Of a stretch of DNA of 64,000 nt, positions 33-37,433 are shown piece by piece. The notes under the pieces were generated by a model. That model worked only from the letters and a program-made list of their open reading frames with translations. It was not told the origin of the DNA and made no database searches. Every line of letters starts with the position of its first letter. Position 1 is the stretch's first letter. This stretch comes from Escherichia coli (GTDB taxonomy: Bacteria > Pseudomonadota > Gammaproteobacteria > Enterobacterales > Enterobacteriaceae), in the NCBI RefSeq assembly GCF_030384885.1, contig NZ_CP128613.1, one strand, 5' to 3'. The position numbers and the translations under genes were made by a program.

Positions 33-407
33 ATGACTTCAACTGCACGCTCCCTTCGCTACGCGCTGGCAATCCTGACCACTACGTTGGTGACACCTTC
101 CGTCTGGGCACATGCGCATTTAACGCATCAGTATCCTGCGGCAAACGCGCAAGTGACAGCTGCCCCGCAGGCAATCACTTTAAACTTCTCGGAAGGCGTT
201 GAAACAGGATTCAGTGGTGCAAAAATCACGGGGCCAAAAAACGAAAATATTAAAACATTACCGGCGAAGCGGAATGAGCAGGACCAAAAGCAACTGATTG
301 TTCCACTGGCCGATTCGCTGAAACCCGGAACCTACACCGTTGACTGGCATGTTGTTTCGGTGGACGGGCATAAAACGAAAGGACACTACACCTTTAGCGT
401 GAAATAA
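33..407 (+). CDS. yobA: CopC-family periplasmic copper-binding protein YobA
   Basis: ORF 124 aa with signal peptide (MTSTARSLRYALAILTTTLVTPSVWAHAHL...); matches recalled YobA, followed 3 nt later by yebZ. Confidence 0.9.
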   Translation: MTSTARSLRYALAILTTTLVTPSVWAHAHLTHQYPAANAQVTAAPQAITLNFSEGVETGFSGAKITGPKNENIKTLPAKRNEQDQKQLIVPLADSLKPGTYTVDWHVVSVDGHKTKGHYTFSVK

Positions 408-410
408 ATC

Positions 411-1283
411 ATGCTGGCGTTTACCTGGATCGCGCTGCGATTTATCCATTTCACCTCGCTGATGCTGGTTTTTGGCTTCGCAATGTACGGTGCCTGGCTG
501 GCCCCCTTAACGATTCGTCGCTTGCTGACGAAGCGTTTTCTGCGTTTACAACAGCACGCTGCCGTCTGGAGTTTGATCAGTGCCACTGCAATGCTCGCCG
601 TTCAGGGCGGGTTGATGGGAACGGGATGGTCAGATGTATTTTCGCCAAACATTTGGCAGGCTGTTTTGCAAACGCAGTTTGGTGGTGTCTGGTTATGGCA
701 AATTGTTCTCGCCCTCGTAACGTTGATCGTCGCCCTTATGCAACCGCGGAATATGCCACGTTTGCTGTTTATGCTCACTACCGCGCAATTTATTCTGCTG
801 GCGGGAGTCGGGCATGCGACGCTGAATGAAGGGGTAACGGCGAAAATCCATCAGACTAATCACGCGATTCACCTGATCTGTGCGGCGGCGTGGTTTGGAG
901 GATTACTTCCGGTGCTCTGGTGTATGCAACTCATCAAAGGCCGTTGGCGACACCAGGCTATTCAGGCGCTGATGCGTTTTTCCTGGTGCGGGCATTTTGC
1001 GGTGATCGGCGTACTGGCAAGCGGCGTGCTTAATGCATTGTTGATTACCAGATTTCCCCCCACGCTTACGACTTACTGGGGCCAACTCTTATTGCTCAAA
1101 GCCATACTGGTGATGATTATGGTGGTCATCGCGCTGGCTAATCGTTATGTTCTTGTACCGCGCATGAGGCAGGATGAAGATCGTGCGGCTCCCTGGTTTG
1201 TGTGGATGACTAAACTCGAATGGGCGATAGGTGCGGTAGTGCTGGTGATCATCAGCCTGCTTGCGACTCTCGAACCTTTTTGA
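411..1283 (+). CDS. yebZ: CopD-family inner-membrane protein YebZ
   Basis: ORF 290 aa, polytopic hydrophobic product; conserved yobA-yebZ-yebY order. Confidence 0.9.
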   Translation: MLAFTWIALRFIHFTSLMLVFGFAMYGAWLAPLTIRRLLTKRFLRLQQHAAVWSLISATAMLAVQGGLMGTGWSDVFSPNIWQAVLQTQFGGVWLWQIVLALVTLIVALMQPRNMPRLLFMLTTAQFILLAGVGHATLNEGVTAKIHQTNHAIHLICAAAWFGGLLPVLWCMQLIKGRWRHQAIQALMRFSWCGHFAVIGVLASGVLNALLITRFPPTLTTYWGQLLLLKAILVMIMVVIALANRYVLVPRMRQDEDRAAPWFVWMTKLEWAIGAVVLVIISLLATLEPF

Positions 1284-1295
1284 TGGATTACGAAA

Positions 1296-1637
1296 ATGAT
1301 GAAAAAAAGTATTCTGGCGTTTCTGTTACTCACCAGTTCTGCAGCGGCGCTGGCGGCACCGCAGGTGATTACCGTCAGTCGTTTTGAAGTGGGTAAAGAC
1401 AAATGGGCATTTAACCGCGAAGAGGTGATGCTGACATGCCGACCGGGCCATGCGTTGTATGTTATTAATCCGAGTACCCTCGTGCAGTATCCTTTGAACG
1501 ATATCGCACAAAAGGAAGTCGCCAGCGGGAAGACCAATGCCCAGCCCATTTCGGTGATTCAGATTGATGATCCTAACAATCCAGGTGAAAAAATGAGTCT
1601 GGCACCGTTTATAGAGCGAGCTGAAAAACTCTGTTAA
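1296..1637 (+). CDS. yebY: DUF2511 secreted protein YebY
   Basis: ORF 113 aa with signal peptide ([23 protein letters not shown]...); third gene of yobA operon. Confidence 0.9.
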
Positions 1638-1665
1638 TTACCTAAAATAGCCTTTTGATTTCCAA

Positions 1666-1710
1666 TAAAAAACCGCCTCAGTTCTTTCACCAGAACAGGC
1701 GGTTTTTAAC
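1666..1710. terminator. Bidirectional intrinsic terminator (yebY on +, RyeA on -)
   Basis: Stem AACCGCCT...AGGCGGTT (1671..1705) flanked by A-run on the left and T-run on the right. Confidence 0.7.
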
Positions 1711-1794
1711 ATTTAAGCTGATGACCACCACGCTTTTTATTGACCATTTTGCACGCAAACTGGAAAACCTGGCGTCGTCATCTATTCTTAAAGG

Positions 1795-1898
1795 GCAAGG
1801 CAACTAAGCCTGCATTAATGCCAACTTTTAGCGCACGGCTCTCTCCCAAGAGCCATTTCCCTGGACCGAATACAGGAATCGTGTTCGGTCTCTTTTTA
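1795..1898 (+). ncRNA. sdsR: RpoS-dependent small RNA SdsR (RyeB)
   Basis: Sequence GCAAGGCAACTAAGCCTGCATTAATGCCAACTTTTAGCGCACGG...CCGAATACAGGAATCGTGTTCGGTCTCTTTTT matches recalled SdsR (~104 nt); ends in hairpin plus T-run; CTATTCT -10-like element upstream. Confidence 0.85.
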
Positions 1899-2031
1899 TC
1901 TGTTAAAAGCCAGAAGCATTCCCTTCGCTGACTTTATAGTCAACCATAACACACACTCTACTGTCTGAGTCCAGCGTTTTTTAACATTCTTGTTAAGATT
2001 ATGTGATCTTTAGCGCGGGAGGAAAATATTG

Positions 2032-2688
2032 ATGAAACAGCCTGCGCCCGTTTATCAGAGAATTGCGGGTCATCAATGGCGACATATCTGGCTTTCAGGC
2101 GATATACACGGTTGTCTTGAGCAGTTGCGCCGCAAATTATGGCATTGTCGTTTTGAACCGTGGCGAGATTTACTTATCTCAGTGGGAGACGTTATCGATC
2201 GTGGGCCGCAAAGTTTACGTTGCCTGCAGTTACTGGAACAACATTGGGTTCGTGCGGTAAGAGGCAATCATGAACAGATGGCGATGGATGCGCTGGCATC
2301 CCAGCAGATGTCTTTGTGGTTGATGAATGGCGGCGACTGGTTTATTGCGCTGGCAGATAATCAACAGAAACAAGCGAAAACGGCGCTGGAAAAATGTCAG
2401 TATTTGCCCTTTATTCTTGAAGTACACAGTCGCACCGGCAAACATGTTATTGCCCATGCCGATTATCCGGATGATGTTTATGAATGGCAAAAGGACGTCG
2501 ATTTGCATCAGGTCTTGTGGAGCCGCTCACGATTACGTGAAGGCCAAAAAGGGCAGGGAATTACAGGTGCTGATCATTTCTGGTTTGGTCATACACCGTT
2601 GCGCCATCGCGTGGATATTGGCAACCTGCATTATATTGATACCGGTGCTGTCTTTGGGGGAGAACTGACTCTTGTGCAATTGCAATAA
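2032..2688 (+). CDS. pphA: Serine/threonine protein phosphatase 1 (PP1/lambda-phosphatase family)
   Basis: ORF product MKQPAPVYQRIAGHQWRHIWLSGDIHGC...GNHE contains metallophosphatase motifs GDxHG/GDxxDRG/GNHE; 218 aa from second Met. Confidence 0.9.
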   Translation: MKQPAPVYQRIAGHQWRHIWLSGDIHGCLEQLRRKLWHCRFEPWRDLLISVGDVIDRGPQSLRCLQLLEQHWVRAVRGNHEQMAMDALASQQMSLWLMNGGDWFIALADNQQKQAKTALEKCQYLPFILEVHSRTGKHVIAHADYPDDVYEWQKDVDLHQVLWSRSRLREGQKGQGITGADHFWFGHTPLRHRVDIGNLHYIDTGAVFGGELTLVQLQ

Positions 2689-2880
2689 TTAAAAATCACC
2701 GTACTCCTGTGCAGGTCGCCAGAAACCATCTATAAAATCCTCAATCGGAAAACAACCGCCATGGCGGATCCGTTGATCGCTCATAGAATAAAGACACTGT
2801 TGTTCCGTGTTGTAGACATCCACAACAATATCTTCACAACCGCCATCCAGGTAGCAAACAAAAAGTACCAGCGCGAACAT
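2689..2880 (-). CDS. yebW: Small uncharacterized protein YebW (63 aa)
   Basis: Internal Met of ORF 2689..2964 gives the 63-aa product MFALVLFVCYLDGGCEDIVV...; matches recalled YebW. Confidence 0.75.
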   Translation of the reverse strand: MFALVLFVCYLDGGCEDIVVDVYNTEQQCLYSMSDQRIRHGGCFPIEDFIDGFWRPAQEYGDF

Positions 2881-2984
2881 TTCATCCCCGAAGTGTGGTG
2901 CCGTACCGTTAAGTTTAGGAGAGATTTTACAACGGGGGAATAACCAGGACAAATAACCCGCCATGCCGACGGGTTCTTTTTGGA

Positions 2985-3221
2985 TCAGGCAAGACGCATA
3001 ATCCAGGCATCAGATTGTTGATCGTAACGGGTACGGTAAAGGACAGAGTGTTCGCCATTTAGTAGGGCAGGGATACTGGTTTCAGCATCCCAGGCATCCA
3101 GTTGCATACATAAATCGGGGTCTGATTTACAAGGAATGGTTAACGTTCGATCACCCGGCGATTCGCCGTGTAATTCGCCGTCGTCGATTTCAAAAGCGCC
3201 TATGCGCACACTGGTTTTCAT
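2985..3221 (-). CDS. yebV: Small uncharacterized protein YebV (78 aa)
   Basis: Product MKTSVRIGAFEIDDGELHGESPGDRTLTIPCKSDPDLCMQLD... matches recalled YebV; start taken at MKTSV within ORF 2985..3236. Confidence 0.8.
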   Translation of the reverse strand: MKTSVRIGAFEIDDGELHGESPGDRTLTIPCKSDPDLCMQLDAWDAETSIPALLNGEHSVLYRTRYDQQSDAWIMRLA

Positions 3222-3338
3222 CTTCGTGCTCTCCATTTAGCTGCCGGTTGTGGTACGACCAGTCCGATCGCACCATTTTTCAGCCTAGTTGAGGCAGCCG
3301 AATGTGCCAGTCAAAAAGTGCGCTTTTTTTGTGCGCTG

Positions 3339-4778
3339 TCAGGCGTTACCTGTAAAAAGTTTCCCGTCCCGCACCAGTTCACGCGGGTAGCTGTTTTTCA
3401 GTCGCGAACCAATCCGTTTGGCTAAACCAATCGGCTGATGCTGGAAAGTAACCAATACATCATCCGCGACTGGCGCGGCTTGCGGGTAAACATCGCGCCC
3501 GCGATACCACTCTTCCGCTTCCTGCGGTGTCAGTTCAAAAGCGTTCACATTGTCGGGGGAGGCAAGGGCAATAACCGCTTCATGCTGCCAGCGATAACCT
3601 TTGTTATGTGTTTCGGCAAGTTTAATCCCCAACCGAGAAAATCGGACTTTACCGATCAAGGCTTCAATGCCCACCGGGAACAACCACAGTTCTTTGTCGC
3701 GTTGCCAGAGTCGCAGGTTTCCATCCCAGTTTAAGCCAACACTTGCAGCCGCCTGACGAATTTGACCGGCTTCGCGATCTTTCACCGGGCTAAACGGGAA
3801 ATTGCCCACTTTGTATTTTGGGGCGGGTAAGACGGGGATCGCCTGAGTTTTACGCAGACGAGCAACGAAGAAGCCTTCGCAGTCGTAAATTTGTGGGAAA
3901 ACATGCAAAAAGCCTTCTTCGGTCAGCGCCTTATTTGCACCAGGGAAGAGATCGCCAAGCGGTATAAACTCTACTGCGTCGGGGTAAGTCTCTTTCAGCC
4001 ACCGGCAGACGGCTTCATTTTCTTCCTGGTTTAAGGTACAGGTCGAGTAAATCAGCGTACCGCCAGGGCGTAATGCATGAAAGGCGCTGTCGATCAGTTC
4101 CCGTTGGGTAGCTGCGATTTCCTGATTGCTTTCTGGTGACCAGTTTTTTAGCGCATCGGGATCTTTACGCACCACGCCTTCGCCGGAGCAGGGAGCGTCC
4201 AGCAAAATGGCATCGAACATTTCTGGCACTGCCGCACCAAATACACGGCCATCAAAATGCGTGAGCGCAACATTACGGATGCCACAGCGGCTGATATTGG
4301 CATGTAACACTTTTACCCGACTGGCGGAAAACTCATTGGCAAGGATCTCCCCTTCGTTATTCATCCGCGCGGCAATTTGCGTCGTTTTGGAGCCGGGCGC
4401 GGCAGCGACATCCATCACCCGCTGTGGTGCATTACCGTCAGCAAACAAGGCGGCGACGGGCAACATTGAACTGGCTTCCTGAATATAAAACAGGCCACTT
4501 AAATGCTCGGCGGTACTACCCAATGGCAAGGCATCTTCATCGTCGCGTTCAATCCAGAAACCTTCTTCACACCACGGAATTGGCGTAAGCGTCCAGCCAT
4601 AAGGGGCGGTTAATTGCAGGAAATCAGCAACGGAGATTTTCAGCGTATTAACGCGAATACTGCGGCGCAACGGGCGCTGACAGGCGGCAAGAAAATCATC
4701 AAATGAGAGCGTCGAAGGCATTGCTTCGCGCATTTGTGTCAGAAAGGCGTCCGGGAAATAAACGGTGTGTTGGGCCAC
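3339..4778 (-). CDS. rsmF: 16S rRNA m5C1407 methyltransferase RsmF
   Basis: Product (M)[21 protein letters not shown]... with SAM-binding Sun/NOL1 core; 479 aa if initiated at the GTG (4778) rather than the upstream ATG. Confidence 0.9.
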
Positions 4779-4858
4779 GAGCATGTACCACTGGCAAAAA
4801 AAACAGGTGCGCAGTTTAGCATAAACGCTCCGGCGCAGGCACGCCGGAGCAGTGGGCA

Positions 4859-7492
4859 TTATTTGGGAAGCGCTGTTCCCCATTCACGCCACTCTTTCGG
4901 TTCACTTTCCTGCAACAGGAAGTGCTTGCCTTCCTGGGCTTTCGGTGCCAGCGGCGTACCCGGAGGCGTAGCGAAGGCGATGCCGCCACGGATAAACTGG
5001 TTAAAGGTGCCGGTTTTCACGACGCCGCCCGTCAGACCAAAGTCCAGACTGTAACCCGATGCCAACCAGAAGACGGAATTGTTACGCACCAGGTGTTGAT
5101 AGCGTTTACTGATGCGCATCGCAATCATCACGCGATCTGACAATGTCCCCAGCGTCATTCCGGTAACCGTACCGACTTCCAGACCACGGAACAGCACAGG
5201 CGTACCGATGCCTAACGAACCGGCTTCCGGCGCTTCAACAATAATGCTTAAGCCATCCAGGTAACGCGAATCAGTTATGGTGGCCTCTTGTAATTCAAAG
5301 TCGCGGCGAGGATTGCCCCGGCCTGGTTCGACGTTGATATACGGCTGGAGGATAGTATCAAGATGCTCAACGCCAGCTGCCGAAATTTGCGGTGTGACCA
5401 CTGAGAAGCGTGTACCACCGCGTGCAAAGGTCTGGACATATTCCGGATAGAGTACCGCCTTTGCCTGTACTTCATTGCGCGCGGTAATCAGATCCAGCGT
5501 CTGGATTTGCCCGATATCAATACCGAGATAGCGAATTGGCATCCCGACCGCCAGTTTTCCGGCATCGAAAGCGTGAAGCGTAATTTGCCCGCCAACCGCA
5601 CGGGCCGCTGTTTCGGAAGCATACAGAATACGCTTGTCGCCTTTACGCTGACTGGCGCTGGCACCGCTGAGGTTATCGAAGCTAATAGCTCCCTTTAATG
5701 CTCTGGAGAGCGGGGATGCCTGTACAGTCAGACCACTACCATTTAGCTGAACTTTCGCCCCACCTTCTGCCCAGAACACGCTGTTGCTGGTCAGAAGGTT
5801 GCGATACTCCGGCTTAATATGCAGATCGATATCAAACGCGTTAGCTCGCGGACGCACAGTAATAACTTCACCAACTTCAAATTTACGGTACAGCACTACC
5901 GATCCTGCCTGCACATCCGGCAGCGTCTCTGCACTCAAACTCACGGTTGTGGTGGGTAAATCGCTAAGGCTGTTCTCCAGCGCTTTTTCCAGATTGGCAT
6001 ACAGTGGATAGCTGGCTTTCATCTCGCCTTTATCGCCTGGCAGAATACGTATCCCGCCGTTAATCCATTCTGAGGCGCTGGCACCGAGAAACTCAACGCC
6101 ATCCAGCCCCACCTTCACGTCGACACGGCTGTTGACGACAAATTTGCTATCGCCTTTTACCAGTTCGCGATGCTGAGGCTCGATGGCGACGGTAAAGGTG
6201 ACGCCTTTGCTGGTGAGTTTACGATCGATAACCTGGCCTACCTGCACGCCGTGAAGAATGAGCGGCTGACCAGCATCAATACCGTAACTTTCCGGCGCAG
6301 TCAGGGTCAGCGTCAGAACATCTGGCTCATGGAGCAGGGCTTTTTCGCCAGGAACAACAATAAACTCTTTACGTGGCTCACCGTCGCCCGGCACCAACTC
6401 GAAGGTTTTGCCGGTCAGCAAGGTACTGAGATTAGCATCGCTAAGGGATAATTTTGGATTACGTAATTCGATGCGGGTATTTTCCCGTAACAGCGTTACG
6501 ACGCTGGGATCAACGGTCATTTCTCCGGTGACTTTACCGCCAGGATTTAAATCCAGTTTAGTCAGCTGTCCGACTTCCAGCCCCTGATACATTAACGGCG
6601 TAGAGTCGGCGGTTAATCCGGCCCCACTCGGCAGTTCCAGTTTTATTATTACGCCACGCTGGCTGTGGGCGAGATCTTCATACAGACCAAAGGTATCTTC
6701 CGCCTCGGCAGGTTTTGACTCTTCTGGCGAATCGAAGGCAATTGCACCGTTAACCAGTGCCGCCAGACTTTCCAGTTTCACTTTTGCGCCACTGATACTG
6801 ACGTTGGCATCAACGCCGGAAACGTTCCAGAAACGGCTACCTTTTTTCACCAGATCGGTAAAACGTCGCTCGATCAGGACATCAATCACTACGCCTTGCT
6901 TATTGGGATTGATGGCATAGTCGTAGACTTTACCCACCGGGATCTTACGGAAATATACCAATGAACCACTGTTCAGTGAACCGAGATCGGGGGCTTGCAG
7001 GTGGATCATCAGATCGCCGTTATCCAGCCGATATTTCGGTTGGGTATCGAGTGCGACAAAGTGATCCTGCTCTTTACCTTTACCCGGCATCATGCCGATA
7101 TAGTTACCCCCGACGAGGGCGTCCAGCCCGGAGACTCCTGCCAGCGAGGCTTTTGGCGTCACCAGCCAGAACTGTGTCTCCTCGCGCAGCGCATCTTTCA
7201 TATCGGACTTGATGCTGACTTTGACTTCAATCTTACGAAGATCGTCGCTCAGGCTGATATCTTGCACTGTTCCGACCTCAACGCCCTGATAACGAACAGG
7301 TGTGCGGCCCGGGACGATACCGTCCGCCGACATAAAGTCGATGGTGACGGTATTACCCCGATCCTGATAACTGTCCCAAATCAGCCAACCGGCAATCATA
7401 AGCGCGATGAACGGCAGCAGCCAGAAAGGTGAGATACGGCGTTTATTTTTAATCTGCGCTTCAGTCGTCGAAGCGGGCGTTTCCTGACTCAT
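4859..7492 (-). CDS. letB: Multi-MCE-domain periplasm-spanning lipid transport protein LetB (YebT)
   Basis: 877-aa product [36 protein letters not shown]... with repeated MCE domains; start at internal Met of ORF 4859..7534. Confidence 0.9.
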
Positions 7493-10185: not shown

Positions 10186-12234
10186 ATGAACATGTTTTTT
10201 AGGCTTACCGCGTTAGCTGGCCTGCTTGCAATAGCAGGCCAGACCTTCGCTGTAGAAGATATCACGCGTGCTGATCAAATTCCGGTGTTAAAGGAAGAGA
10301 CGCAGCATGCGACGGTGAGTGAGCGCGTAACGTCGCGCTTCACCCGTTCTCATTATCGCCAGTTCGACCTCGATCAGGCATTTTCGGCTAAAATCTTTGA
10401 CCGCTACCTGAATCTGCTCGATTACAGCCACAACGTGCTGCTGGCAAGCGATGTTGAACAGTTCGCAAAAAAGAAAACCGAGTTGGGTGATGAACTGCGT
10501 TCAGGCAAACTCGACGTTTTCTACGGTCTCTACAATCTGGCACAAAAGCGCCGTTTTGAACGTTACCAGTACGCTTTGTCGGTACTGGAAAAGCCGATGG
10601 ATTTCACCGGCAACGACACTTATAACCTTGACCGCAGCAAAGCGCCCTGGCCGAAAAACGAGGCTGAGTTGAACGCGCTGTGGGACAGTAAAGTCAAATT
10701 CGACGAGTTAAGTCTTAAGCTGACAGGAAAAACGGATAAAGAAATTCGTGAAACCCTGACTCGCCGCTATAAATTTGCTATTCGTCGTCTGGCGCAAACC
10801 AACAGCGAAGATGTTTTCTCGCTGGCAATGACGGCGTTTGCACGTGAAATCGACCCGCATACCAACTATCTTTCCCCGCGTAATACCGAACAGTTCAACA
10901 CTGAAATGAGTTTGTCGCTGGAAGGTATTGGCGCAGTGCTGCAAATGGATGATGACTACACCGTTATCAATTCGATGGTGGCAGGTGGCCCGGCAGCGAA
11001 GAGTAAAGCTATCAGCGTTGGTGACAAAATTGTCGGTGTTGGTCAAACAGGCAAGCCGATGGTTGACGTGATTGGCTGGCGTCTTGATGACGTGGTTGCC
11101 TTAATTAAAGGGCCGAAGGGCAGTAAAGTTCGTCTGGAAATTTTACCTGCTGGTAAAGGGACCAAGACCCGTACTGTAACGTTGACCCGTGAACGTATTC
11201 GCCTCGAAGACCGCGCGGTTAAAATGTCGGTGAAGACCGTCGGTAAAGAGAAAGTTGGCGTGCTGGATATTCCTGGCTTCTATGTGGGTTTGACAGATGA
11301 TGTCAAAGTACAACTGCAGAAACTGGAAAAACAGAATGTCAGCAGTGTGATCATCGACCTGCGTAGCAATGGCGGTGGGGCGTTGACCGAGGCAGTATCG
11401 CTTTCAGGCCTGTTTATTCCTGCAGGTCCGATTGTTCAGGTTCGTGATAACAACGGTAAAGTTCGTGAAGACAGCGATACCGACGGTCAGGTCTTCTATA
11501 AAGGCCCGCTGGTGGTGCTGGTTGACCGCTTTAGTGCTTCGGCTTCAGAAATCTTTGCTGCGGCAATGCAGGATTACGGTCGTGCGCTGGTTGTGGGTGA
11601 ACCGACATTTGGTAAAGGCACTGTCCAGCAGTACCGTTCATTGAACCGTATTTACGATCAGATGTTACGTCCTGAATGGCCAGCTTTGGGTTCTGTTCAA
11701 TACACGATCCAGAAATTCTATCGCGTTAACGGCGGCAGTACGCAACGTAAGGGCGTAACGCCAGACATCATCATGCCGACAGGTAATGAAGAAACGGAAA
11801 CGGGAGAGAAATTTGAAGATAACGCGCTGCCGTGGGATAGCATTGATGCTGCAACCTATGTGAAATCAGGCGATTTAACGGCCTTTGAACCGGAGTTGCT
11901 GAAGGCGCATAATGCGCGTATCGCGAAAGATCCTGAGTTCCAGAACATCATGAAGGATATCGCGCGCTTCAACGCCATGAAGGACAAGCGCAATATCGTT
12001 TCTCTAAATTACGCGGTGCGTGAGAAAGAGAATAATGAAGATGATGCGACGCGTCTGGCGCGTTTGAACGAACGCTTTAAACGCGAAGGTAAACCGGAGT
12101 TGAAGAAGCTGGATGATCTACCGAAAGATTACCAGGAACCGGATCCTTATCTGGATGAGACGGTGAATATCGCACTCGATTTGGCGAAGCTTGAAAAAGC
12201 CAGACCCGCGGAACAACCCGCTCCCGTCAAGTAA
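10186..12234 (+). CDS. prc: Tail-specific periplasmic protease Prc (Tsp)
   Basis: 682-aa product MNMFFRLTALAGLLAIAGQTFAVEDITRADQ... (signal peptide, PDZ and S41 peptidase regions); begins 19 nt after proQ stop. Confidence 0.93.
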   Translation: MNMFFRLTALAGLLAIAGQTFAVEDITRADQIPVLKEETQHATVSERVTSRFTRSHYRQFDLDQAFSAKIFDRYLNLLDYSHNVLLASDVEQFAKKKTELGDELRSGKLDVFYGLYNLAQKRRFERYQYALSVLEKPMDFTGNDTYNLDRSKAPWPKNEAELNALWDSKVKFDELSLKLTGKTDKEIRETLTRRYKFAIRRLAQTNSEDVFSLAMTAFAREIDPHTNYLSPRNTEQFNTEMSLSLEGIGAVLQMDDDYTVINSMVAGGPAAKSKAISVGDKIVGVGQTGKPMVDVIGWRLDDVVALIKGPKGSKVRLEILPAGKGTKTRTVTLTRERIRLEDRAVKMSVKTVGKEKVGVLDIPGFYVGLTDDVKVQLQKLEKQNVSSVIIDLRSNGGGALTEAVSLSGLFIPAGPIVQVRDNNGKVREDSDTDGQVFYKGPLVVLVDRFSASASEIFAAAMQDYGRALVVGEPTFGKGTVQQYRSLNRIYDQMLRPEWPALGSVQYTIQKFYRVNGGSTQRKGVTPDIIMPTGNEETETGEKFEDNALPWDSIDAATYVKSGDLTAFEPELLKAHNARIAKDPEFQNIMKDIARFNAMKDKRNIVSLNYAVREKENNEDDATRLARLNERFKREGKPELKKLDDLPKDYQEPDPYLDETVNIALDLAKLEKARPAEQPAPVK

Positions 12235-16795: not shown

Positions 16796-17410
16796 ATTAT
16801 ACGCACTGTCATGGTGCAACTGCTTCAATTTAAAACTCTGGTCTGACTTCAAATAATTATCATATTATTTATTTGCGTAACGGGATATCAGAAAAAGATA
16901 TTTAGCCCATTAATTTATTAGGATGTTTACATCGGATTTGTGATTAAGCGTGTTATTATTTATTAGCGAAACGTTTCTCTCTTGATTTTTTTGCGCATTC
17001 ATCAATTTTTCTTATTTTAAATTTACAATACCTTTGGGGATTGACTTCTCTTTGGGGTGATTGATAGCCGTTAACTGACTGTTTTATGAGAAAAAGTGAT
17101 ATAACTTTTTATTCATTGCATAGCAGAAAATGTGATATTGCACGCACTATGTAATAACTTCTCCCATTGGCCTGGAACAACTGAACTTATTGAACTATGT
17201 TAGAAAATACGTCAGTTTAAGTATCTGCCTGAACTGGCAAGGTTAAGCACAATGATATATCGGCGCGTATTCCGTTGCATAAGTGTGCAAAAAAAGTGGA
17301 AGACGTATCGAGATTTGTGCGTCTGATCGAGACATGTTTAAAAATGGCTTGCCATAATTAACGTTGTATGTGATAACAGATTTCGGGTTAAACGAGGTAC
17401 AGTTCTGTTT

Positions 17411-17554
17411 ATGTGTGGCATTTTCAGTAAAGAAGTCCTGAGTAAACACGTTGACGTTGAATACCGCTTCTCTGCCGAGCCTTATATTGGTGCCTCATGC
17501 AGTAATGTGTCAGTTTTATCTATGTTATGCCTGCGGGCGAAGAAAACAATCTAA
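17411..17554 (+). CDS. yobF: Small protein YobF (47 aa), co-transcribed with cspC
   Basis: ATG ORF (below track threshold) giving [47 protein letters not shown]; ends 12 nt before cspC. Confidence 0.8.
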
Positions 17555-17566
17555 GGAATTTTTCAA

Positions 17567-17776
17567 ATGGCAAAGATTAAAGGTCAGGTTAAGTGGTTCA
17601 ACGAGTCTAAAGGTTTTGGCTTCATTACTCCGGCTGATGGCAGCAAAGACGTGTTCGTACACTTCTCCGCTATCCAGGGTAATGGCTTCAAAACTCTGGC
17701 TGAAGGTCAGAACGTTGAGTTCGAAATTCAGGACGGTCAGAAAGGTCCGGCAGCTGTTAACGTAACAGCTATCTGA
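17567..17776 (+). CDS. cspC: Cold-shock-domain protein CspC
   Basis: 69-aa product [37 protein letters not shown]... with RNP1/RNP2 motifs. Confidence 0.95.
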
Positions 17777-17822
17777 TCGAATCCACTGATCTGAAGTGTG
17801 AAGACACTTCAATCTCGCTATA

Positions 17823-17849
17823 AAGCCTCGTCGAATGCGAGGCTTTTTA
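17823..17849 (+). terminator. Intrinsic terminator after cspC
   Basis: Hairpin AAGCCTCG-TCGAAT-GCGAGGCTT followed by TTTT. Confidence 0.8.
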
Positions 17850-17941
17850 CTTTGTTTTATCTTCGCTCCTGGCGTTCGGATATTTGCCCGCCGCGTGATT
17901 CGCGTTACACTTGCGGCCTTTAGTATCCTGCCGGAGTTGTC

Positions 17942-35702: not shown

Positions 35703-37388
35703 TTGAAGAAGGTTTGGCTTAACCGTTATCCCGCGGACGTTCCGACGGAGATCAACCCTGACCGTTATCAATCTCTGGTAGATATGTTTGAGCAGTCGGT
35801 CGCGCGCTACGCCGATCAACCCGCGTTTGTGAATATGGGGGAGGTGATGACCTTCCGCAAACTGGAAGAACGCAGTCGCGCGTTTGCCGCTTATTTGCAA
35901 CAAGGGTTGGGACTGAAGAAAGGCGATCGCGTTGCGTTGATGATGCCTAATTTATTGCAATATCCGGTGGCGCTGTTTGGCATTTTGCGTGCCGGGATGA
36001 TTGTCGTAAACGTTAACCCGTTGTATACCCCGCGTGAACTTGAGCATCAGCTTAACGATAGCGGCGCATCGGCGATTGTTATCGTGTCTAACTTTGCCCA
36101 CACTCTGGAAAAAGTGGTTGATAAAACCGCCGTTCAGCACGTTATTCTGACCCGTATGGGCGATCAGCTATCCACGGCAAAAGGCACGGTAGTCAATTTC
36201 GTTGTTAAATACATCAAGCGTCTGGTGCCGAAATACCATCTGCCAGATGCCATTTCATTTCGTAGCGCCCTGCACAACGGCTACCGGATGCAGTACGTCA
36301 AACCCGAACTGGTGCCGGAAGATTTAGCTTTCCTGCAATATACCGGCGGTACCACTGGTGTGGCGAAAGGCGCGATGCTGACTCACCGCAATATGCTGGC
36401 GAATCTGGAACAAGTTAACGCGACTTACGGGCCGCTGTTGCATCCGGGCAAAGAGCTGGTGGTGACGGCACTGCCGCTGTATCACATTTTTGCGCTGACC
36501 ATTAACTGCCTGCTGTTTATTGAACTGGGCGGGCAGAACCTGCTTATCACTAACCCGCGCGATATTCCGGGGTTGGTAAAAGAGTTAGCGAAATATCCGT
36601 TTACCGCGATAACCGGCGTTAACACCTTGTTCAATGCGTTGCTGAACAATAAAGAGTTCCAGCAGCTGGATTTCTCCAGTCTGCACCTTTCCGCAGGCGG
36701 TGGGATGCCTGTTCAGCAAGTGGTGGCAGAACGTTGGGTGAAACTGACAGGACAGTATCTGCTGGAAGGTTATGGCCTGACCGAGTGTGCGCCGCTGGTC
36801 AGCGTTAACCCGTATGATATTGATTATCATAGTGGTAGCATCGGTTTGCCGGTGCCGTCGACGGAAGCCAAACTGGTGGATGATGATGATAATGAAGTAC
36901 CACCGGGTCAACCGGGTGAGCTTTGTGTCAAAGGACCGCAGGTGATGCTGGGTTACTGGCAGCGTCCGGATGCTACCGATGAAATCATCAAAAATGGCTG
37001 GTTACACACCGGCGATATCGCGGTGATGGATGAAGAAGGATTCCTGCGCATTGTCGATCGTAAAAAAGACATGATTCTGGTTTCCGGTTTTAACGTCTAT
37101 CCCAACGAGATTGAAGATGTCGTCATGCAGCATCCTGGCGTACAGGAAGTCGCGGCTGTTGGCGTACCTTCCGGCTCCAGTGGTGAAGCGGTGAAAATCT
37201 TCGTTGTGAAAAAAGATCCATCGCTTACCGAAGAGTCACTGGTGACTTTTTGCCGCCGTCAGCTCACGGGCTACAAAGTACCGAAGCTGGTAGAGTTTCG
37301 TGATGAGTTACCGAAATCTAACGTCGGAAAAATTTTGCGACGAGAATTACGTGACGAAGCGCGCGGCAAAGTGGACAATAAAGCCTGA
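35703..37388 (+). CDS. fadD: Long-chain-fatty-acid--CoA ligase FadD
   Basis: 561-aa product (M)[31 protein letters not shown]... with AMP-binding motif ([12 protein letters not shown]); initiates at TTG 35703, not at the upstream in-frame ATG. Confidence 0.92.
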
Positions 37389-37405
37389 GCGTTAAGTCAG
37401 TCGTC

Positions 37406-37433
37406 AGACGCCGGTTAATCCGGCGTTTTTTTT
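37406..37433 (+). terminator. Intrinsic terminator after fadD, immediately upstream of rnd
   Basis: GACGCCGG-TTAAT-CCGGCGT hairpin followed by T8. Confidence 0.8.

Follow-up and report, generated by a model that had tools for sequence, protein, structure and literature searches.

The 394-bp gap that separates yebY from pphA in this Escherichia coli chromosome is occupied, we conclude with high confidence, by the sdsR/ryeA (ryeB/sraC) bidirectional small RNA (sRNA) locus, in which two convergent promoters form a growth-phase switch. The locus has been described before and is thoroughly characterised, and nothing about it is new. Its features and those of the flanking genes are collected in Table 1, with positions given in the window, that is, the whole stretch of 64,000 nucleotides of contig NZ_CP128613.1 that was analysed.

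Table 1 Features of the sdsR/ryeA interval and its flanks, in window coordinates.
Feature	Position	Strand	Description	Basis
yobA	33-407	+		ORF and annotation
copD/yebZ	411-1283	+		ORF and annotation
yebY	1296-1637	+		ORF and annotation
pphA (PrpA)	2032-2688	+	lambda-NinI-like Ser/Thr phosphatase	ORF and annotation
Bidirectional Rho-independent terminator	1667-1707	both	ends yebY (+) and RyeA (-)	
sdsR promoter	1761-1788	+	sigma-S-selective type	sequence reading; features per Frohlich 2012 (PMC3333887)
SdsR (RyeB) sRNA	1795-1897	+	transcription start site (TSS) G1795	Rfam, MG1655 alignment, published end mapping
SdsR Rho-independent terminator	1863-1897	+		terminator scan, fold, cross-species compensatory changes
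Phage attB core	1875-1897	.	final ~23 bp of sdsR	Balbontin 2008, as cited in PMC7380047
RyeA (SraC) antisense sRNA	1935→1665	-		MG1655 annotation via alignment; published RACE and in vitro transcription
ryeA promoter	1943-1974	-	sigma-70	hexamer mutated in Choi 2019; identity to K-12
K-12 difference	1616		within yebY	pairwise alignment
K-12 difference	1667-1672		A run one base shorter here (RyeA terminator U run 6 versus 7)	
K-12 difference	1697		A versus K-12 G in the terminator stem; A-U pair replaces G.U	
K-12 difference	1715		SNP, within RyeA	
K-12 difference	1921		SNP at RyeA +15, C versus T	

The gene order yobA-copD-yebY-[sdsR/ryeA]-pphA is that of the E. coli core chromosome, in an orientation reversed relative to MG1655, and pairwise alignment identifies the region as the reverse complement of MG1655 1,922,9xx-1,923,4xx. 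The sdsR/ryeA locus was found in 5425 of 5426 complete E. coli genomes, and over the 461 bp at the locus several complete E. coli chromosomes are 100% identical to the window. Aligned with K-12 across 461 bp, the window shows the five differences of Table 1; only four are intergenic, and sdsR and both promoters are unchanged. The PGAP-annotated E. coli genomes that we examined carry no feature under the interval, just yebY and pphA, and among the records examined the sdsR and ryeA ncRNAs are annotated solely in the curated MG1655 record.

Scanning the whole window against Rfam gave four matches at the gathering threshold, two of them at sdsR/ryeA. Elsewhere, a cspA-thermoregulator match at 17391-17851 (+) (135.4 bits, gathering score 78) spans the yobF-cspC operon and corresponds to the 5′ UTR and CDS of a cspA-family gene, labelled cspE by PGAP, and not to cspA. 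The sroD match at 37347-37432 (+) (115.2 bits) lies at the fadD 3′ end, upstream of rnd, and is a known sRNA in its expected position.

The SdsR_RyeB model (RF00111) aligns over its entire length (model positions 1-100 of 100) to 1798-1897 (+), with 114.4 bits and E=1.8e-21 against a gathering score of 38 bits. The sdsR annotation of MG1655, 1923104-1923207 (-), maps by alignment to window 1794-1897, 104 nt that are 100% identical to K-12. A preliminary description of this DNA had claimed an SdsR sequence of ~104 nt, lying between yebY and pphA and closing in a hairpin and T-run, and each element of that claim is borne out: SdsR, starting at 1795, directly follows yebY, whose last position is 1637, with pphA beyond it, and the RNA finishes in an 11-bp stem at 1863-1891 followed by CTTTTT with a U run at 1893-1897 (-15.8 kcal/mol). 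In K-12 the SdsR TSS lies 1 nt downstream of the annotated end and carries a 5′ triphosphate (Choi 2019, PMC6610125), and the 3′ ends fall at +100 to +102 (PMC6610125), equivalent to window 1894-1896. The 103-nt RNA folds at -34.8 kcal/mol (z=-4.4), and its minimum free energy fold contains both an internal GGCUCU/AGAGCC hairpin and the Rho-independent terminator hairpin. The 3′ end of SdsR and that of RyeA are both true Rho-independent termination sites in vitro, and the SdsR terminator is leaky, read-through yielding an sdsR-pphA mRNA (PMC6610125).

Upstream of SdsR, a -35 element TGGAAA at 1761-1766 is separated by a 16-nt spacer, with C1782 at -13, from the -10 element TATTCT at 1783-1788, followed by the A/T-rich discriminator TAAAGG and then G(+1). 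The hallmarks given for sigma-S-selective promoters (Frohlich 2012, PMC3333887) are a 16-nt spacer, a C at -13, a -10 that fits CTAYNCT and a discriminator rich in A/T, and the sdsR promoter of the window has all of them. Sigma-S dependence of the K-12 sdsR promoter has been demonstrated in vitro (PMC6610125).

On the opposite strand, the MG1655 ryeA annotation, 1923066-1923337 (+), maps by alignment to the RyeA interval of Table 1, which gives an RNA of ~268-271 nt (271 for the full interval) as against 272 nt in K-12, where there is one more U. The K-12 RyeA ends were mapped by primer extension, 5′/3′ RACE and in vitro transcription (PMC6610125). Three adjacent starts were found, of which the most downstream is the mature 5′-monophosphate end (PMC6610125), corresponding to window 1935; transfer of the mapping places the minor starts, which are trimmed, at 1936 and 1937. 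The K-12 3′ ends lie at +261 to +270, within the terminator U run, and termination there was demonstrated in vitro (PMC6610125); in the window the corresponding U run, at 1672-1667, would close RyeA. The preliminary description had set RyeA at 1666..1915. Its 3′ end was right, whereas its 5′ end fell ~20 nt short of the true +1 at 1935, so that the interval left out the promoter (1943-1951) and gave a length of 250 nt where ~270 nt is correct; an older size estimate, quoted in Frohlich 2012 (PMC3333887), is likewise ~250 nt. RyeA spans all of sdsR together with the sdsR promoter, so SdsR is wholly nested within it, and the two TSSs are convergent and 140 bp apart. The earlier claim that RyeA crosses SdsR on the opposite strand is supported: both Rfam families match, and the locus is identical or near-identical to the one in K-12 for which both transcripts were mapped.

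The ryeA promoter consists of a -10 hexamer TATGGT at 1948→1943 (-), 7 nt upstream of 1935, with TGT directly before the hexamer, the TG of which (1951-1950) makes it an extended -10. The hexamer is assigned from the mutagenic primer RyeA-p3 (PMC6610125), which reads TGTGTGT[CTCGAG]TGACTATAAAG where the wild type reads TGTGTGT[TATGGT]TGACTATAAAG and thus swaps TATGGT for CTCGAG; in K-12 this mutation abolished RyeA (Choi 2019, PMC6610125). The window is identical to K-12 across 1922-2060, a stretch that takes in the -10 with its TG, the region of the TSS and also 125 bp upstream. A further minus-strand promoter-like sequence, TTGACT-17-AATGCT, would start transcription at ~1912-1915 and so fits the earlier 5′ end, but it is ruled out by the K-12 hexamer mutation, primer extension and RACE, all of which lead to TATGGT and a +1 at 1935. 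Farther upstream lies CTGGAC at 1974→1969 (-), 19 nt from the -10. This element (1968-1974, -) is conserved in several genera with an E. coli-type promoter, and because it lies far from the -10 for a sigma-70 -35 it could be a regulator binding site instead.

RyeA is predicted to end at the bidirectional terminator beside yebY, which is made up of an A6 run at 1667-1672, a CCGCCU..AGGCGG hairpin with a 2-nt bulge, and a T5 run at 1703-1707. The preliminary description had placed such an element at 1671..1705, and indeed 1667-1707 folds on both strands, with -19.8 kcal/mol (z=-7.5) on the plus strand and -20.7 kcal/mol (z=-5.3) on the minus strand; no shuffled sequence folded equally well. The minus-strand stem is intact and, if anything, stronger than that of K-12, given the A-U pair in place of G.U at 1697, and the effects of the shorter RyeA U run and of the SNP at +15 (1921) are probably small. 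A generic sigma-70 and terminator scan reported only the SdsR terminator and, at 1621-1648 (+), a promoter-like site of chance level. Neither promoter was picked up, that of ryeA having a weak -35, a 19-nt spacer and an extended -10 and that of sdsR being sigma-S, and the bulged bidirectional terminator also escaped it, probably owing to the 2-nt bulge in its stem; for this reason we do not take the scan as evidence of absence.

Function at this locus has been worked out in K-12 and Salmonella. In vitro, ryeA is transcribed by the sigma-70 polymerase and sdsR by the sigma-S polymerase, and in K-12 mutating either -10 abolishes that RNA and increases the other (PMC6610125). Frohlich 2012 described Hfq-dependent pairing with ompD, reciprocal expression of SdsR and SraC, and an RpoS-type promoter (PMC3333887). 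That SdsR accumulates in an RpoS-dependent manner and binds Hfq was shown in K-12 and Salmonella; its Hfq-dependent trans targets in E. coli comprise tolC, yhcB and mutS, and in Salmonella ompD (PMC6610125, PMC3333887), although mutS did not act as a primary SdsR target in Choi 2019 (PMC6610125). From the identity of the sequences we infer the same transcripts, sigma dependence, degradation, interference and targets in this strain.

During growth, the sigma-70 polymerase would initiate at the extended -10 ryeA promoter (TSS 1935-1937, -), cross the entire sdsR gene and its promoter, and halt at the bidirectional terminator. Its passage would interfere in cis with polymerases starting from the sdsR promoter, leading to less SdsR and less sdsR-pphA read-through mRNA, and the two RNAs would pair as a perfect ~103-bp duplex for degradation by RNase III. 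As RpoS builds up in stationary phase or under stress, the sdsR promoter would fire at 1795 and SdsR would come to exceed RyeA. SdsR with Hfq would then repress tolC, yhcB and mutS (in Salmonella, ompD), while some sdsR polymerases would pass the SdsR terminator into pphA. An excess of SdsR would be toxic through yhcB repression and rescued by RyeA, which is why the pair bears the label of sRNA toxin and sRNA antitoxin.

How far RyeA acts as an RNA in this scheme must be weighed against a reading in which the RNA is a by-product and antisense transcription itself, by polymerase collision or supercoiling, gates the sdsR promoter and read-through into pphA. In K-12 the pphA mRNA derives mostly from SdsR-terminator read-through from the sdsR promoter, so pphA falls with sdsR promoter activity, and it is ryeA transcription, acting in cis, and not the RyeA RNA that reduces both sdsR promoter output and pphA expression (PMC6610125). 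RyeA supplied in trans did not lower a pphA reporter, whereas mutation of the ryeA promoter raised it, and the transcriptional interference was reproduced in vitro (PMC6610125). Loss of the sraC promoter raised SdsR just ~1.5-fold (Frohlich 2012, PMC3333887), and beyond the SdsR overlap the RyeA sequence and promoter are poorly conserved, both of which point the same way. We nevertheless consider it unlikely that the RNA itself does so little. Co-expression of SdsR and RyeA led to dose-dependent mutual degradation, RyeA was still present in stationary phase once sdsR was silenced, and the toxicity that SdsR overexpression causes through yhcB repression was rescued by RyeA overexpression (PMC6610125). 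The mutual degradation has been ascribed to RNase III cutting the perfect duplex, the processing by RNase III being summarised in PMC8687705, and an sRNA/sRNA toxin-antitoxin arrangement has been proposed (Choi 2018/2019; PMC6610125; PMC8687705). The two mechanisms are compatible, and the published model has both. The earlier statement that RyeA is a sponge or antitoxin-like partner of SdsR is accordingly supported by the RNase III-aided mutual degradation (PMC6610125, and the summary in PMC8687705), with the refinement that RyeA acts partly via transcription itself, through interference and control of pphA read-through, and not by sponging alone. The magnitude of its RNA-level effect on SdsR is debated.

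A second reading, which we hold to be highly improbable, is that SdsR alone is functional in this strain, the Rfam match to RyeA being the SdsR reverse complement and no stable antisense RNA being made. A scan with the SdsR/RyeB and SraC models was the check that the preliminary description had proposed, and both match far above their gathering scores. The SraC_RyeA model (RF00101; 145 nt, gathering score 37 bits) matches 1901-1757 (-) with 175.1 bits and E=2.9e-40. This match covers only the SdsR reverse complement and ~40 nt antisense to the sdsR promoter, beginning near the processed RyeA 5′ ends (+33/+36, PMC6610125), and because 100 of the 145 positions are SdsR reverse complement it is not independent evidence for RyeA. 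The lysogenic E. coli strain R1 illustrates the point: it still reaches 178.9 bits although a prophage lies between the RyeA promoter and the remainder of the gene. A Rfam match to RyeA is therefore by itself no proof of an intact RyeA gene, and the silence of the generic sigma-70 scan at the ryeA promoter could be counted on the same side. The real evidence for RyeA in the window is that the promoter defined in K-12, the TSS region and the minus-strand terminator are all present and essentially K-12-identical, down to the -10 TATGGT with its TG and the 125 bp upstream.

A third possibility, that the interval encodes a small protein instead of or besides the RNAs, has a likelihood close to negligible: ORFs are present (for example, 63 aa at 1740-1931 (+) and 38 aa at 1687-1803 (-)), but every one starts with TTG except a 24-aa ATG ORF at 1638-1712 (-) that runs across the terminator hairpin, the SdsR core is invariant at all positions across species with no codon-like pattern, the 5′ part varies by 1-3 nt and would shift the frame, and K-12 and the PGAP genomes have no annotated CDS here.

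To set the bidirectional sRNA locus in a wider context, we surveyed one genome per species with an SdsR core pattern, which yielded at least 120 loci; flanks were sufficient in 109 of them, or 110 counting the window. Across some 110 species of Enterobacterales among the loci listed, SdsR is virtually invariant from ~+25 to the terminator, while the 5′ stem-loop and the terminator vary. The internal GGCUCU hairpin is fixed by the search pattern, so covariation was read from the terminator stem, in which four pairs show compensatory changes among 24 species. All 108 bona fide species loci listed carry the C-TA motif of the sdsR -10, with its C at -13, which fits C-TA..(Y)T in 107 of the 108 and reads CTACAGT in the remaining one. 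The upstream gene is yebY at 111 of the 120 loci listed, and for five of the other nine the DNA available upstream is too short to tell.

The RyeA side behaves differently: RyeA starts downstream of the SdsR terminator, in DNA that is hypervariable among the loci listed. Of the 110 loci listed, 32, the window among them, have the E. coli-type module CTGGAC-N19-TGnTATGGT and 20 the Salmonella-type module TGTTAA-N-TGnTATAA. The remaining loci listed match neither promoter expression, some of them carrying related sequence; the expressions undercount, as Yersinia, Serratia and Brenneria have related upstream sequence with other -10-like hexamers, and a lack of RyeA outside Enterobacteriaceae can therefore not be claimed from them. 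At the far end of RyeA, an A-run, hairpin and T-run occupy the same position upstream of sdsR in genera of Enterobacteriaceae, with a variable stem interior. Promoter module and terminator occur together in 46 of the loci listed, the promoter alone in 6, the terminator alone in 11 and neither in 47, a co-occurrence that is confounded by phylogeny. Frohlich 2012 (PMC3333887) found sraC poorly conserved and present in about half of the species examined, and the variability of the RyeA promoter and terminator in the loci listed agrees with this.

Two SdsR_RyeB matches above the gathering score are those in an uncultured Paraglaciecola sp. of the Alteromonadales (11011-11110, 62.5 bits) and in an Erwinia metagenome-assembled genome (4861-4955, 90.5 bits). 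Both keep the GGCUCU hairpin and the terminator, with an unrelated 5′ third and no CTA-type sdsR promoter. Unless its contig is mis-binned, the Paraglaciecola match would represent an SdsR-like RNA beyond the Enterobacterales.

The final 23 bp of ryeB have been reported as a phage attachment site and insertion hot spot (Balbontin 2008, as cited in PMC7380047); the window carries this sequence in one copy, as an empty site. In 237 of 5425 complete E. coli genomes (~4%) the locus is split into two places. One such arrangement is seen in E. coli R1 (NZ_CP031706.1), where sequence matching the window runs as far as the equivalent of 1898 and gives way to a lambdoid prophage (2738-5260 of the locus record) with integrase, excisionase, DUF1187, ralR, an exonuclease and a RalA sRNA match of 216.7 bits. 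SdsR is regenerated there at 116.4 bits, with a G to A change in the stem as expected of a phage-borne copy, and the K-12-type RyeA promoter is displaced; the junction is that of a prophage integrated in the last ~23 bp of sdsR with regeneration of the sRNA 3′ end. A different disruption occurs in E. coli FDAARGOS_944 (NZ_CP065613.1), in which an IS1A at 1749-2446 of the locus record lies between yebY and the rest of sdsR, at the window equivalent of ~1804. The insertion is apparently ~10 nt into the SdsR transcript and parts SdsR from its sigma-S promoter; copD is truncated too in this record.

In many species other than E. coli the SdsR 3′ end recurs in part further downstream, 60-100 bp from the SdsR terminator. 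This second, partial copy reads CCGAAT..ATTCGGTCTTTTT on the SdsR strand (survey loci L017, L061, L106, L009, L015 and others) and possibly represents a second terminator or the scar of an att site. Next come two or three ATTTCGG(G) repeats, which would make up the RyeA 5′ leader. Neither the second copy nor the repeats occur in the window, which has a single SdsR 3′ end. PphA itself has ~48-50% identity to phage NinI/phosphatases, with a best match of 63.8%, and the pphA-yebW-yebV flank lies ~0.2 to 6 kb from sdsR among the loci listed. A recent phage origin of pphA and the RyeA promoter, as a prophage remnant at the att site, was weighed and is unsupported, because the pphA-yebW-yebV right flank is conserved in many genera of Enterobacteriaceae and a second att copy is absent from the window.

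It is possible, although we put it forward only tentatively, that RyeA's part of the locus (its promoter, its 5′ leader and the A-run by which the yebY terminator becomes bidirectional) is an evolutionarily labile add-on that is rebuilt whenever foreign DNA uses the att site. If so, the window, with its 46-nt leader, lack of a second att-like copy and adjacent pphA, would be one empty-site variant among several, and RyeA-type control of SdsR and pphA would differ qualitatively between genera, and between E. coli lysogens and non-lysogens.

Set beside known systems, the SdsR/RyeB (RF00111) of the window is the same as that of K-12 in its sequence, its position downstream of yebY, its C(-13) promoter and its terminator; the RNA itself shows no difference, and the window simply adds another E. 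coli strain. RyeA/SraC (RF00101) shares with K-12 the -10 TATGGT and TG, the TSS region and the bidirectional terminator, and differs at +15, at 1715, in the stem pair at 1697 and in the length of the U run. Its promoter is of the E. coli type instead of the Salmonella type (TGTTAA...TGnTATAA). The pair resembles type I toxin-antitoxin systems such as hok/sok and RalR/RalA in that a cis- or near-cis antisense RNA neutralises a toxic partner via a duplex and RNase III. Unlike in those systems, however, the SdsR "toxin" is a non-coding regulatory RNA and not the mRNA of a toxic protein, the overlap is complete and not partial, and toxicity arises on overexpression only, through repression of yhcB. 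Another likeness is to CJnc190/CJnc180 of Campylobacter jejuni, in which a trans-acting sRNA is antagonised from the opposite strand with co-processing by RNase III, and for which PMC8687705 cites SdsR/SraC as an analogous enterobacterial pair. The sequences and organism are unrelated, and RNase III matures the sRNA in C. jejuni, whereas in SdsR/RyeA it mainly degrades the duplex.

SdsR/RyeA is a textbook bidirectional sRNA locus, and RefSeq/PGAP omits both RNAs in the non-K-12 genomes examined. The main value of the present analysis is correct annotation, with the RyeA unit at 1935→1665 and its promoter core at 1943-1951. The useful corrections are to the RyeA 5′ boundary and promoter, to the role of interference and pphA read-through, and to the weight of a Rfam RyeA match that is not independent of SdsR. 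Through this locus, stress signalling by RpoS is joined to the phosphatase PphA and to genes of the envelope and of efflux (tolC, yhcB, ompD).
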